A DNA stretch of 54,262 bases. Origin: Candidatus Uhrbacteria bacterium (lineage in GTDB: Bacteria > Patescibacteriota > Patescibacteriia > UBA9934 > GWF2-40-263). Where the stretch lies: assembly GCA_016206085.1 (NCBI GenBank), contig JACQSF010000002.1, positions 1-54,262 on the forward strand, read 5' to 3'. The notes below the pieces were generated by a model that worked only from the letters and a program-made list of their open reading frames with translations, ran no database searches and was not told the origin of the DNA. The position numbers and the translations under genes are program-made. Positions 13,448 through 46,471 of the stretch are shown in pieces (positions within the stretch are counted from its first letter, which is position 1; each line of letters starts with the position of its first letter).

Positions 13448-13476
13448 TTGAAAAGGGGATAGGAGCGTGATAACGT
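13448..13476 (+). promoter_or_regulatory. Putative sigma70 promoter driving GIY-YIG + tRNA-Val
   Basis: TTGAAA-17 nt-TAACGT with a TGn extension; only 7 nt separate the GIY-YIG stop from the tRNA. Confidence 0.55.
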
Positions 13477-13489
13477 TTCGCTCGCGGAT

Positions 13490-13738
13490 ATGTTCTTTGT
13501 CTACTTGTTACAAAGCGAGGTCGATGGAACGTACTACATCGGGAGAACCAACGATGTTTCTCGTAGACTCGACGACCATAATAGTGGTCAATCTTTTTAC
13601 ACAAAGAGAAAAAGACCCTGGAGGTTGGTCTACTACGAGGCTTACGATAATGAGGATCTCGCTAAGGAGAGGGAGAAGAAATTGAAGAAGAGAGGATCCA
13701 GTTACTACGGTCTTCTTGAAAGGTTGGGAAGAAAATAA
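13490..13738 (+). CDS. Stand-alone GIY-YIG nuclease (82 aa)
   Basis: FVYLLQS...YYIGRT...RRLDDHNSG...YTK..RPWRLVYYE...AKEREKKLK. Confidence 0.92.
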   Translation: MFFVYLLQSEVDGTYYIGRTNDVSRRLDDHNSGQSFYTKRKRPWRLVYYEAYDNEDLAKEREKKLKKRGSSYYGLLERLGRK

Positions 13739-13745
13739 AATAACA

Positions 13746-13822
13746 GGGCGTGTAGCTCAGTTGGTTAGAGCGCTGTCCTCACACGACAGAGGTCAGAGGT
13801 TCGAGCCCTCTCACGCCCACCA
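13746..13822 (+). tRNA. tRNA-Val(CAC)
   Basis: GGGCGTG acceptor, CTGTC-CT-CAC-AC-GACAG anticodon arm, AGAGG-TTCGAGC-CCTCT T arm, CACGCCCACCA. Confidence 0.96.
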
Positions 13823-13824
13823 AT

Positions 13825-13856
13825 AAAAGTATCTCAAAAATTGGGATATTTTTTTT
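13825..13856 (+). terminator. Putative terminator after tRNA-Val
   Basis: AAAAGTATCTC-loop-GGGATATTTTTTTT. Confidence 0.5.
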
Positions 13857-13877
13857 GGATAAGCTCAGTTGGTTAGA

Positions 13878-13901
13878 TCCCCCCGCTCGCGAGCGGGGGG
13901 A
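13878..13901. mobile_element. 24-bp perfect palindrome TCCCCCC-GCTCGCGAGC-GGGGGGA
   Basis: Flanked by a TAGA direct repeat (13874-13877 and 13902-13905) that occurs once at this site in the intact tRNA. Confidence 0.85.
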
Positions 13902-13931
13902 TAGAGCGCTGTCCTCACACGACAGAGGTCA

Positions 13932-13955
13932 TCCCCCCTTTCGCGAAAGGGGGGA
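13932..13955. mobile_element. 24-bp perfect palindrome TCCCCCC-TTTCGCGAAA-GGGGGGA
   Basis: Flanked by a TCA direct repeat (13929-13931 and 13956-13958) that occurs once at this site in the intact tRNA. Confidence 0.85.
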
Positions 13956-14071
13956 TCAGAGGTTCGAGCCCTCTCACGCCCACCAAACCAGACGCTTCCG
14001 GGCGCCTGTTTTGTTTGTCACCGCCGTCCCTTGCCCCATGTCCATTTTCTTGATACGCTTGGAACATCTTT

Positions 14072-14677
14072 ATGTCATTACGATTTTCCCAGTTTGAAGA
14101 GAGATTGTATGACCGGTTTGGACCGGTGGGTGGCGCGGTTGCTTCCTTTTTGCTTGAGATCATCCAGATCATCCTTATCTCAAGTGCGATCATCATTCCG
14201 ATTCGTTACTTCTTGATTCAGCCGTTTTATGTAAAAGGGGCGAGCATGGAACCCAACTTTTACGACCAGGAGTACCTTATTATCGATGAATTGACCTACC
14301 GGTTTCGTGAACCGTATCGAGGAGAGATTGTTGTATTCAAGTATCCTCGCGATCCCAGTCAGTACTTCATCAAGCGTGTGATCGGGTTGCCAGGGGAGAC
14401 GGTCGAAGTCACGGGGGGAAATGTCATCATCTATAACACCGAGCATCCAAATGGGGTCGTGGTTGAAGAAGATTACTTAGACGAATCCACGACCGGCAAA
14501 GTCCGTGTGACACTCGGAGAAGATGAGTACTATGTCTTCGGAGATAATCGTGATTCATCACTGGACTCCCGGAGCTTCGGTTCTATTACTCGTGATGATG
14601 TGATCGGACGTGTGTGGGTCCGCGGTCTCCCCCTCTCTCGTATTACAACGTTTGACCTTCCCACTTACAATCTCTAA
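14072..14677 (+). CDS. lepB: Signal peptidase I
   Basis: TM helix, VKGASMEPN (Ser), RGEIVVF, FIKRVIGLPGE (Lys), GDNRDSSLDSR. Confidence 0.95.
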   Translation: MSLRFSQFEERLYDRFGPVGGAVASFLLEIIQIILISSAIIIPIRYFLIQPFYVKGASMEPNFYDQEYLIIDELTYRFREPYRGEIVVFKYPRDPSQYFIKRVIGLPGETVEVTGGNVIIYNTEHPNGVVVEEDYLDESTTGKVRVTLGEDEYYVFGDNRDSSLDSRSFGSITRDDVIGRVWVRGLPLSRITTFDLPTYNL

Positions 14678-14685
14678 TTGATCCT

Positions 14686-16107
14686 ATGCCATTCAAGAGA
14701 AAAGCTCTAGCCAAAGAACCGGCTCCAAAAAAGGTTTTGAAAGAGGAGCCTAAAAAAGATCTCGATGAGGAGGGTGAGGGAAAATCCGGGAAGACATTTG
14801 AACTGCTTCGTGGATTTCGAGACATCTTGCCGGAGGATCAGGGCAGATGGAACCTTGTGCGTGATACGATTCGTTCAATTGCCGAATCCTACAGCTTCGA
14901 TCGTATCGATCTGCCGATTTTGGAGCGTTCGGATTTGTTTCAGCGAACCATCGGCAAAGGAACCGACATCGTCGAAAAAGAGATGTACGTCTTTACGGAT
15001 CCATCCAATCGTTCTGTGGCGTTGCGTCCGGAGGCGACCGCCAGCGCGGCTCGTGCCTATATCAGCCACGGCATGATTGAGCGGCCACAGCCGGTGAAGA
15101 TGTGGTATTTAGGTCCCATGTTTCGTCACGACCGTCCGCAGGCCGGCCGTTATCGCCAGTTTTATCAGGCGGGATTTGAGAGTTTTGGTGTGGCCGAACC
15201 GATTGTGGATGCCCAACTCATCGTGATTGGTCATCAGATTTTTAAGTCGCTTGGTTTGGACGTAAAAGTTGAGATTAACTCGATTGGCACCTCCGAGTGT
15301 CGCGCCGCGTATCTTACTGAACTTGTCGCGTACTTCCGCCAGCATCGCAATAAACTTTCCGAGGATGACAAGCGGAGACTGCAGAAAAATCCCTTGCGCA
15401 TGTTGGACAGCAAGGAAGAGGTAACCCGTGAGCTACTGCAAAGTGCTCCTCAAATTCTTGATTGGTTGGATGAGACGAGCAAGGAGCACTTCATGAAGGT
15501 GCTTGAGTTTTTGGAAGAGGTGGAGGTGTCCTACCAACTCAATCCCTACTTGGTTCGCGGGCTTGACTACTACTCACACACCGTTTTTGAGTTTACGCTT
15601 CAAGAAGACGTCGGCGACTTGTCGCAAAGTGCGTTGGGTGGCGGCGGACGATATGACGGGCTTGTGGAGATTCTTGGTGGTCGGCCGACACCGGCGTGCG
15701 GATTTGCCCTGGGAATTGAACGCATCGTTCGTGCGTTGGAAGCAAAAGGCGTCAATCCACCCGAGCGTCCACCCGCCCTGGTATTTTTTGCTCAGTTGGG
15801 TGATGCGGCTCGTCGTGTGGGACTGAAGTTGTTTGAGGAGTTTCGACAAGCGGGTGTTTCCGTTGCAGAAGCGTTTGGGAAGAATGCCCTCAAAGGCCAA
15901 CTGGAGGCCGCCAATAGGATGGGGGTAAGACTCACGCTCATTTTAGGTCAAAAGGAAGTGCTCGATGGGACGATTATTATTCGTGACATGGAGTCAGGGG
16001 CGCAGGAGATTGTCGACGTAAAAAAGGTTGTGGGACTTGTGAAAAAGAAGCTCCTCCATGAGGAGGGGGTGGCTCTCCAGAGTCAGACGCCGGTTGTGGA
16101 AGCTTAA
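14686..16107 (+). CDS. hisS: Histidyl-tRNA synthetase
   Basis: RGFRD, LRPEATA, FRHDRPQAGRYRQFYQ, LVRGLDYY, GGGGRYDGL, GFALGIER. Confidence 0.97.
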   Translation: MPFKRKALAKEPAPKKVLKEEPKKDLDEEGEGKSGKTFELLRGFRDILPEDQGRWNLVRDTIRSIAESYSFDRIDLPILERSDLFQRTIGKGTDIVEKEMYVFTDPSNRSVALRPEATASAARAYISHGMIERPQPVKMWYLGPMFRHDRPQAGRYRQFYQAGFESFGVAEPIVDAQLIVIGHQIFKSLGLDVKVEINSIGTSECRAAYLTELVAYFRQHRNKLSEDDKRRLQKNPLRMLDSKEEVTRELLQSAPQILDWLDETSKEHFMKVLEFLEEVEVSYQLNPYLVRGLDYYSHTVFEFTLQEDVGDLSQSALGGGGRYDGLVEILGGRPTPACGFALGIERIVRALEAKGVNPPERPPALVFFAQLGDAARRVGLKLFEEFRQAGVSVAEAFGKNALKGQLEAANRMGVRLTLILGQKEVLDGTIIIRDMESGAQEIVDVKKVVGLVKKKLLHEEGVALQSQTPVVEA

Positions 16108-45608: not shown

Positions 45609-45684
45609 GAATTGATCTCCTTGTGAAGAGCTAAATGCAGCCTAATCAAAAACCCGCCCCTGCACAAGTTCGGGATGGGTTTGT

Positions 45685-45933
45685 CTACTTCTGGATCAGG
45701 TGTTTTCTCATGAAGGCAATTCCAGAAGCTGTTTTTAGATATTTTTCAAATTGTGCTGCTTGCTGTTGTGATATGAAAGCAGAGTACCAGATGACTGACC
45801 AGAGTTTGAACTTTGAAGTATGTGGTACTTGTCCAGCGTTATGTTGTTCAAGTCGGTTCCGGAGGTTTGATGTCGAACCTTTATAGATTTGATTTGGGAG
45901 GTTCTTGCTTCTCAGGATGTAGACGTAGTGCAT
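45685..45933 (-). CDS. Stand-alone GIY-YIG nuclease (82 aa)
   Basis: MHYVYILRS...IYKGSTSNLRNRLEQHNAG..PHTSK...WSVIWY.AF...AAQFEKYLKTASG. Confidence 0.9.
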   Translation of the reverse strand: MHYVYILRSKNLPNQIYKGSTSNLRNRLEQHNAGQVPHTSKFKLWSVIWYSAFISQQQAAQFEKYLKTASGIAFMRKHLIQK

Positions 45934-45973
45934 ATCGAGTTGGCCTGTCTCTATATGAAGACGAGCATGGCCT

Positions 45974-46080
45974 GCCATCCGTAGCTCCAGCACAGGACAT
46001 AGTTATACGCCCTTCTTCGCTAAAGCTACGGAGGGCATCCTTCGCCCCAGCAACAAAAAATACTGCTGGAGCGAAGGATG
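45974..46080. repeat. Cluster of CCGTAGCT/CCTTCGC palindromic repeats between the tmRNA 3' end and GIY-YIG
   Basis: GCCATCCGTAGCT...AGCTACGGAGGGC and CATCCTTCGC...GCGAAGGATG hairpins; the latter overlaps the tmRNA CCA. Confidence 0.75.
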
Positions 46081-46471
46081 GTGGAGCTGGGGAGAATCGA
46101 ACTCCCGTGCGGTAAGGTTTCTCATCTTGATGTTTCCAAGCTCATTCACGCCTCATACCTCGTCACGCTCAAGGCGTGAAGCAATACATGACGAGGAACC
46201 GATCGCAACTCTTACATGTGAGAGATCGGTGACCTCACACGCGAAGCTCGATAATATAACACCCGACTGCTGGCTATCGAGCATGACCAGCGCGGATGGT
46301 TCTGACGCTTACGCGAGAACAGGGGCGAATGAAGGAACGCGCAAAGCGTTCTTGATCATTGCCATGACGTTGTTTGCAGTTGTCGTCTTGCATGGGGAAT
46401 ATTTGCGTGCGACCCATGCTCGCACGACTTGATCAAGATGGAAGAGACTCCCGTCGAAGCCTGTCAGCCCC
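46079..46471 (-). ncRNA. ssrA: tmRNA (one-piece)
   Basis: 5' GGGGCTGACAGGCTTCGAC, 3' GGGAGTTCGATTCTCCCCAGCTCCACCA (G:U Ala identity); tag ORF ANNVMAMIKNALRVPSFAPVLA*; smpB about 2 kb away. Confidence 0.95.

Follow-up and report, generated by a model that had tools for sequence, protein, structure and literature searches.

Why should a gene for a small GIY-YIG nuclease lie between a tRNA promoter and its tRNA, with a damaged duplicate of the same tRNA just behind? The question is raised by a 54,262-nt stretch of DNA from Candidatus Uhrbacteria (contig JACQSF010000002.1 of assembly GCA_016206085.1; hereafter the window), which corresponds to contig C32 of a genome of 877 kb in 34 contigs (G000). 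This genome and all others used here are metagenome assemblies. An earlier note, made from the letters of the window, had read at this locus a promoter, an 82-aa GIY-YIG gene, a gap of 7 nt, a tRNA-Val, a terminator, a truncated tRNA-Val copy with palindromes and a second terminator, all of which are indeed present. It had also pointed to a second 82-aa GIY-YIG gene by the transfer-messenger RNA (tmRNA) gene, which we confirm, and had proposed that these nucleases are selfish. We find that both genes are discrete insertions within stable-RNA transcription units, devoid of signals of their own, and that they probably act as selfish genes, free-standing and similar to homing endonuclease genes, with a specialisation in stable-RNA genes.

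Two GIY-YIG genes inserted into stable-RNA transcription units

The tRNA-Val promoter (13448-13476, + strand) is composed of a -35 box TTGAAA, a 17-nt spacer and a -10 box TAACGT (13471-13476). A consensus scan for promoters and terminators missed this promoter as well as both terminators of the locus, and conservation and folding were used instead. The promoter assignment of the earlier note is upheld by conservation, the arrangement TTGAAA-17 nt-TAnnnT being found before tRNA-Val in G002, G004, G005 and G007. The same promoter is predicted now also to drive GIY-YIG gene 1, an 82-aa open reading frame (ORF; 13490-13738 including the stop codon, + strand) matching PF01541 with E=9e-19. Seven nucleotides separate this gene from the intact tRNA-Val(CAC) (13746-13822, + strand; called by ARAGORN, 70.7 bits with Rfam), which is followed by its resident terminator (13825-13858, + strand), a hairpin at 13825-13853 and then T8 (-10.2 kcal/mol, z=-5.5).

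Counterpart regions in genomes of the same genus were located via lepB, the tRNA-Val sequence and a tmRNA model. In G002, G004 and G005, an LCP-family gene is followed by the same promoter, a short leader, tRNA-Val and a terminator, without a GIY-YIG gene. The alignment between G000 and G002 is continuous through promoter and leader up to ...TCGC(G/A)GAT, where the junction reads GAT/AAC-GGG in G002 and GAT(ATG...TAAAAT)AACA-GGG in G000. Past the 252 extra bases (13490-13741, + strand; ATG to TAA plus AAT, that is, the ORF and 3 nt), both sequences realign into the tRNA and a homologous terminator. This alignment identifies the intact tRNA-Val as the resident gene, and the inserted unit as the ORF alone, placed 4 nt before the mature 5' end. 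A cassette that brought its own tRNA-Val, leaving the broken copy as the resident gene, was considered and dropped, since intact tRNA, leader and terminator are all resident according to the G002 alignment.

At the second locus, the tmRNA gene (46079-46471, - strand; RF00023, 116 bits) is followed, right at its CCA end, by a 145-nt module of three hairpins (45934-46078, - strand; -81 kcal/mol, z=-9.3). GIY-YIG gene 2 (45685-45933, - strand; 82 aa, PF01541 E=8.6e-16) comes next, 145 nt downstream of the tmRNA gene and on its strand. Comparison with G002-G007 identifies the sequence behind it as the original tmRNA terminator (ACAAACCC...GGGTTTTTG; 45647-45684, - strand), displaced behind the cassette. 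Together, module (left) and gene 2 (right) amount to 394 bp, inserted precisely where the CCA end of the tmRNA would otherwise meet its terminator. This cassette is missing in the six same-genus genomes G002-G007, in which the terminator directly follows the CCA end; it is of the ACAAAA type in G002 and G004 and has other sequences in the remaining four. In G001 the same module begins after the tmRNA CCA, and the contig then ends. The tmRNA site is filled in G016, G018 and G027 and holds a pseudogene in G023, and remnants of the module are kept in G009 and G028. Modules of this type follow tmRNA or tRNA CCA ends in G016, G023, G027 and G001, and gene 2 itself falls in a well-supported clade with other genes located 3' of tmRNA or tRNA.

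Filled and empty alleles thus exist at both G000 sites, and the small GIY-YIG genes are mobile among stable-RNA genes, which bears out the selfish mobile insertion claimed earlier. The related claim that these genes make use of stable-RNA transcription units is supported by their position, both lying within the promoter-terminator unit of the RNA gene.

Small GIY-YIG genes at stable-RNA genes of other genomes

In order to survey this association, the Pfam GIY-YIG model was run on 30 genomes of the order, UvrC was excluded, and 1.5-kb flanks were analysed with ARAGORN. Nearly half of the small GIY-YIG hits (41/84) have a tRNA or tmRNA gene no more than 300 nt away, in every case on the same strand, against a same-strand expectation of 1.9% (1,292 RNA genes in 30.2 Mb; binomial P=2e-47). 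The enrichment near tRNA and tmRNA genes that the earlier note had anticipated is therefore real. Twenty-four of these hits are directly 5' of the RNA gene and 17 are found 46-288 nt beyond the CCA end. ARAGORN under-calls tmRNA and unusual tRNAs, and Rfam brought seven further associated loci: two beside tmRNA, two directly 5' of RNase P RNA, two beside group I introns and one beside a tRNA. Altogether, cassettes of these kinds are found in related genomes beside about 20 different tRNAs as well as beside tmRNA, RNase P RNA and rRNA, on the strand of the RNA gene.

In a tree of these proteins (82 columns, poorly resolved), 23 copies without an RNA-gene neighbour form a supported clade of their own that looks like the ordinary YhbQ-type gene. 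It includes the fourth G000 copy (C7:6426-6644), and the RNA-gene-associated genes are not orthologous to its members. Among the other clades, 48 of 61 copies are associated with RNA genes, and several of the remainder sit at contig ends. One clade, which shares both protein and spacer module, is found after tRNA-Ser (on G000 contig C19), tRNA-Asp and, twice, tRNA-Met; conversely, tRNA-Ser(CGA) is trailed by three different GIY lineages in three genomes. Several small GIY-YIG copies are pseudogenes with stop codons, and many are located at contig ends. The association extends beyond the order: among 48 homologous loci from Patescibacteria, Bacteroidota, Gammaproteobacteria, Thermotogota and other groups, 15 adjoin a tRNA on the same strand, four lie in or beside Saccharibacteria rRNA genes, and one is beside a tRNA fragment.

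Four loci deserve mention for their neighbours. L051 (G013:C20) and L067 (G015:C24) are sister GIY-YIG genes 46 and 87 nt upstream of RNase P RNA, on the same strand, and RNase P RNA is therefore another stable-RNA target. At L072 (G014:C9) and L089 (G018:C4), group I introns begin just past the GIY-YIG ORFs; these introns probably sit in tRNA genes that are beyond what ARAGORN can call.

Minimal nucleases of the Slx1/UPF0213 branch

Both genes score far above the PF01541 cut-off of 22.6 bits (68 bits for gene 1 and 58.5 bits for gene 2). The catalytic residues Y5, Y16, G18, R26, H30 and E62, among them the GIY and YIG tyrosines, are invariant among homologues. The nearest solved structures by sequence are the UPF0213 proteins BH0048 and EF2693 (1ZG2, E=8e-14; 1YWL, 2e-10), followed by the SLX1 nuclease domain (7CQ2, 4e-9). 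An AlphaFold model of the 82-aa protein (predicted local distance difference test score, pLDDT, 87.5) retrieves similar structures with Foldseek, namely 1ZG2 at 8e-5 and SLX1 6SEI with a TM-score of 0.69 and a root-mean-square deviation of 1.8, the I-TevI catalytic domain being a weaker match. The NCBIfam model for group I intron endonucleases gives 17.5 bits, below its cut-off of 56. Judged from their sequences, both 82-aa genes are intact, minimal GIY-YIG genes of the Slx1/UPF0213 branch. The family is large, with 9,649 clusters (50% identity) at E<=1e-3.

A broken tRNA-Val copy and its palindromes

Behind the resident terminator lies a broken tRNA-Val copy (13862-13985, + strand) without positions 1-8. 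Its three blocks (tRNA positions 9-24, 21-50 and 48-77) are all 100% identical to the intact gene, and are interrupted by two perfect 24-nt palindromes, of which none would be expected in shuffled sequence. Palindrome 1 (TCCCCCCGCTCGCGAGCGGGGGGA; 13878-13901, strandless) is found at the D-loop/D-stem edge, between two copies of a TAGA target duplication (13874-13877 and 13902-13905). Palindrome 2 (TCCCCCCTTTCGCGAAAGGGGGGA; 13932-13955, strandless) is found at the variable-loop edge and is bordered by a TCA duplication (13929-13931 and 13956-13958). Further downstream, a weak hairpin with a T-rich tract (13989-14016, + strand; hairpin 13989-14007, z=-0.26 on its own) is likely to be the old tRNA-Val terminator behind the broken copy, as its position matches that of the tRNA-Val terminators of relatives. 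A permuted 'tmRNA*' called by ARAGORN at 13890-14694 was rejected as a false call to which the 3' half of the broken copy gave rise: it spans lepB, and Rfam detects nothing there.

The broken copy has an ortholog in G002. This ortholog carries one palindrome, at the palindrome-1 site and with the same TAGA duplication, the sequence of which is asymmetric (TCCCCCTGCTCG/CGAAAGGGGGGA); it is without palindrome 2, the empty site reading GGGGTCAGAGG. Being common to G000 and G002, the broken copy would predate the GIY insertion. In G007, promoter and leader are kept and are followed by tRNA positions 1-22, a 47-nt hairpin, 7 tRNA bases, 40 nt and the intact gene, without a GIY-YIG gene. The 47-nt hairpin resembles one located beside another GIY lineage at tRNA-Arg in G013. 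Since this footprint differs from that of G000, the same tRNA-Val gene must have been hit more than once. Two further observations concern this region in relatives: the broken copy of G004 begins exactly at the palindrome-1 site, and islands of 0.8-1.3 kb with reverse-strand ORFs separate intact and broken tRNA-Val in G002 (L201/L206, G002:C16) and G004 (L198/L205, G004:C1).

The closest homologues of gene 1, namely L088 (G017) and three metagenomic or metagenome-assembled genome (MAG) loci (L104, L106 and L107), are all located at tRNA-Trp, and all have a broken tRNA copy with a perfect 24-nt palindrome of the G000 type (CCCCGCCCTTCGCGAAGGGCGGGG, TCCCTCCCTCGGCCGAGGGAGGGA, CCCCGCCTCTCGCGAGAGGCGGGG and CCCAGCCTTTCGCGAAAGGCTGGG), with 3-4-nt duplications where the flanks are legible. 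One of these loci repeats the G000 order of gene, intact tRNA and broken copy. More generally, each nuclease lineage is accompanied by GC-rich hairpins or palindromes of a type peculiar to it. Where the gene is 5' of a tRNA, the usual layout starts with a promoter and a 5' fragment of the same tRNA, into which a GC-rich hairpin module is set; some further bases of the tRNA come next, then the ORF and finally the intact tRNA. The suspected association with palindromes is thereby substantiated, in that the nuclease genes travel with short GC-rich palindromes or hairpins. Around the homologues from other phyla, GC-rich perfect palindromes are about 25 times denser than across the G000 genome. When insertion points are mapped automatically onto the tRNA, 12 of 15 touch unpaired positions, mainly in the D-loop and the anticodon loop (background 51%, P=0.02).

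A third G000 palindrome (C7:1653-1676) is located in pnp. Its 24 nt and a duplication of 3 nt lengthen the gene by 27 nt without shifting the frame, so that the C-terminal tail of PNPase, rich in Gly and Arg, gains the residues SPHSRVGGG; G004, G002, G003 and G006 lack this insertion. A loose pattern for these palindromes retrieves 39 sites in 14 of the 30 genomes, compared to a single one for the reversed control. About 30 of the 39 are perfect palindromes, although the inner positions were left free, and around half have direct duplications of 3-4 nt. Several of the rest are placed right in the middle of a larger hairpin or a terminator, or within another copy.

The repetitive extragenic palindromic (REP) sequences mobilised by REP-associated tyrosine transposases (RAYTs) come to mind, and the earlier note had argued from the lack of a RAYT in the window. 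This argument fails genome-wide, as G000 has two Y1_Tnp genes (PF01797, 190-290 aa) on other contigs (C27:47140-47463, - strand; C28:36658-36975, + strand). Insertion by RAYT or other HUH enzymes leaves no target duplication. Here, duplications of 3-4 nt are present and the Y1_Tnp genes have no such palindromes nearby, and on both grounds a REP/RAYT origin was dropped as a poor fit. Upstream of the Y1_Tnp genes there are repeats that contain GGGGTCAGGTC, with no C-rich palindrome near.

Some other palindromes were encountered along the way. A further family of perfect palindromes, which is unrelated and measures 26-36 nt, is based on ATTATGTCCGATCGGACATAAT; it occurs in G000 at C8:18131 and 50883, C23:29867, and C30:2062 and 2285. 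At L211 (G023:C1:138721-138742), a palindrome with a CCCG duplication has entered tRNA-Ala at the 5' acceptor strand, and the tRNA stays intact because the G-rich end of the palindrome restores the GGG start. Finally, an identical 26-nt palindrome, GCCACGTCGTTCGCGAACGACGTGGC, is found beside GIY homologues of two Uhrbacteria MAGs and of a MAG labelled Gammaproteobacteria (L149 versus L150 and L151), which suggests mis-binning or recent transfer.

A possible mechanism and its alternatives

How might such genes live and spread? Each would be transcribed as leader or trailer of a stable-RNA precursor and freed by RNase P or by 3' processing; given the -10 box at 13471-13476, the tRNA precursor would have only a very short leader ahead of the ORF of gene 1. 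The nuclease would cut the DNA of tRNA genes in a staggered fashion, probably where bases are left unpaired once tRNA-like hairpins are extruded, hairpin-directed cutting being expected because its relative Slx1 is structure-specific. Repair from a filled allele would then copy the gene in (homing) and might occasionally duplicate or truncate the tRNA gene, producing a broken copy as a side effect. The palindromes, for their part, would be the cognate DNA partner of the nuclease, inserted at staggered cuts and persisting only in a redundant copy or at tolerant sites. That the nuclease itself installs or moves them is the weakest step, which we infer from co-location and correlation: palindromes co-locate with gene-1 homologues in six independent loci, two of the insertions are specific to G000, and the palindromes are perfect where the gene is present and asymmetric in the GIY-free G002, albeit in small numbers.

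Taken further, minimal nuclease and cognate palindrome could make up an unrecognised, two-part class of mobile DNA in which an Slx1-like nuclease serves as the transposase, with no HUH, DDE or recombinase enzyme involved. We regard this extension as rather doubtful. Cuts staggered by 3-4 nt would fall at unpaired hairpin tips (tRNA-gene loops, terminator loops and the centres of other palindromes), a 24-bp element of two 12-bp arms would be installed there, and its symmetry would be regenerated by arm-to-arm copying; homing of the nuclease gene, as well as the breakage and duplication of tRNA genes, would follow from these cuts too.

Several observations weigh against a homing nuclease with palindromes as its partner. 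The 82-aa protein, in which the GIY-YIG domain spans residues 1-70, has no second domain and no DNA-binding or specificity domain of the kind that I-TevI and the Seg proteins carry for finding a target. Palindromes persist without a resident nuclease, as G002 and G008 hold copies and have no small GIY-YIG gene; at the tRNA-Val locus itself, G002 has both broken copy and palindrome without such a gene, and either gain in G000 or loss in G002 may account for this. In G013, which has nine palindromes, none of the GIY genes belongs to the gene-1 clade of the poorly resolved tree. The two Y1 transposase-like genes of G000 could be candidates for moving the palindromes, and the preference for unpaired tRNA positions is, with these small numbers, only modestly significant.

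Part of this evidence would suit a different account, in which the palindromes are an independent family of miniature elements moved by another enzyme (a DDE transposase, or the Y1/HUH proteins encoded on C27 and C28), the broken tRNA is merely a neutral, hairpin-rich place, and the GIY-YIG gene is a separate selfish gene. Palindrome copies in G002 and G008 without small GIY-YIG genes would be natural on these terms, as would those scattered over hairpins between genes, over terminators and over ORFs well away from any GIY gene (nine in G013, for example), and the two PF01797 genes of G000 offer a possible source of enzyme. We nevertheless consider this account somewhat unlikely. The frequent target duplications and the lack of any such palindrome near the Y1 genes speak against the HUH variant, and the copies of GIY-free genomes are mostly imperfect. 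Of the G000 copies, three in all, two are no more than 250 nt away from gene 1; the only G017 copy and those of L104, L106 and L107 adjoin gene-1 homologues, and GC-rich perfect palindromes are enriched roughly 25-fold near other-phyla homologues.

Alternatively, the small GIY-YIG proteins could be host factors that resolve structures or R-loops at busy tRNA genes, or take part in tRNA metabolism, and that are co-transcribed for the sake of regulation. Strict same-strand placement within the RNA transcription unit and intact catalytic residues would agree with such a role, as would the links of Slx1-like domains to TrmH-type tRNA methyltransferase, COG4123 and RNA metabolism (PMC1564403). Host factors would hardly be expected, however, to come and go among same-genus genomes at both sites, to occupy different tRNAs from genome to genome, or to be dispensed with altogether, as in G002 and G008; pseudogenes, contig-end enrichment and broken tRNA copies are moreover common, and a host role is very improbable in our view. 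Still further from what is observed is the idea of left-over cargo from integrase-type islands, for which tRNA and tmRNA genes are classical integration sites and to which the 0.8-1.3-kb islands between intact and broken tRNA-Val in G002 and G004 might be related. The inserts measure 252 bp and 394 bp, sizes on which this candidate was dropped as extremely improbable; their ends coincide with ORF or module boundaries, they hold ORF or module only and no integrase, and insertions are found 5' as well as 3' of tRNAs. Free-standing selfish genes, specialised on stable-RNA genes, accordingly are our preferred and probable explanation.

Implications

If this explanation is correct, one of the commonest unnamed small genes of bacterial genomes would include a large selfish population. 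Its members would live on genes for tRNA, tmRNA, RNase P RNA and rRNA, even in the most reduced genomes known. Broken or duplicated tRNA genes, assembly breaks at tRNA loci and GC-rich palindromes within genes would all find an explanation. A nuclease of 80 residues, perhaps targeted by DNA structure or by a companion hairpin, would be of interest both for its mechanism and as a tool. Moreover, a finding made in phages, that a GIY-YIG endonuclease reshapes tRNA gene arrays, would be carried over to cellular genomes.

Comparison with known systems

By sequence and fold, the best matches of the present proteins are UPF0213/YhbQ (1ZG2, 1YWL) and the Slx1 domain, with which they share the minimal domain and the same catalytic residues; Slx1, moreover, is a structure-specific nuclease, which fits the cutting of hairpin-forming DNA. 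Unlike Slx1, the genes described here come without a RING domain or an Slx4 partner, and unlike the YhbQ-like copies, which keep to their own 23-copy clade away from RNA genes, the RNA-gene-associated clades are mobile. A survey of the GIY-YIG superfamily published in 2006 found prokaryotic Slx1-like domains fused to or neighbouring TrmH-type tRNA methyltransferase and COG4123, and suggested a link to RNA metabolism; it looked at the gene neighbourhoods of Slx1-like genes and reported methyltransferase partners, with no link to tRNA genes (PMC1564403). A full-text literature search turned up no account of small GIY-YIG cassettes next to the tRNA, tmRNA or RNase P RNA genes of bacteria, nor of palindromic insertions of 24 bp.

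GIY-YIG genes are already known from rRNA insertions in bacteria of the candidate phyla radiation (CPR). Bacterial group and nuclease family are the same as here, and four gene-1 homologues are in or beside Saccharibacteria 16S/23S genes. Those insertions, however, interrupt the rRNA and need removal, whereas the cassettes of tRNA and tmRNA genes are placed right next to the mature RNA, which stays whole. In fungal mitochondria, mobile GIY-YIG ORFs (e.g., at Allomyces atp6) bring along a replacement piece of their target gene. They resemble the G000 tRNA-Val locus in that an endonuclease ORF has been inserted where a conserved gene ends, and in that the intact gene is accompanied by a broken copy which has been displaced; they differ in having protein-coding targets and in being fused in frame, whereas stable-RNA genes are the targets here and the ORF alone was inserted in G000.

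The palindromes can be compared with REP elements and with miniature inverted-repeat transposable elements (MITEs), being short, GC-rich, dispersed and seemingly dependent on an enzyme acting in trans. Inverted repeats, target duplications (in about half of the copies), dispersed copies and empty sites (for palindrome 2 and in pnp) are all MITE-like features. Nevertheless, they have 24 bp, in two abutting 12-bp arms with nothing between, which is far below the described size of MITEs, and no RAYT flanked by such palindromes was found, in contrast to REP systems. Their arms also remain perfectly symmetric across diverged copies, which sets them apart from both.

The closest published parallel, and an experimental precedent, is the phage protein SegB. 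It makes its cuts within tRNA genes and causes the tRNA-segB unit to be amplified in tandem, and statistically it is over-represented at distances of up to 1 kb from tRNAs of many isotypes (PMC13096335). The earlier note had put the present system forward as a candidate for an undescribed one; this holds for cellular genomes, for which no description was found in the literature, and not for phages, in which SegB is the published counterpart (PMC13096335). SegB and the other T4-like free-standing GIY-YIG endonucleases have in common with the genes described here an intron-less nuclease gene among tRNA genes. Yet SegB is a phage gene product of about 220 aa, with a DNA-binding part, from the I-TevI/UvrC branch, whereas the present proteins are cellular, consist of an 80-aa domain only, and belong to the Slx1/UPF0213 branch. 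Their genes also lie within a few nucleotides of mature RNA ends, use the promoter and terminator of the RNA gene, and have palindromes alongside. Judged from the loci compared here, the arrangement would thus represent a free-standing homing-type GIY-YIG gene at the stable-RNA genes of cells.

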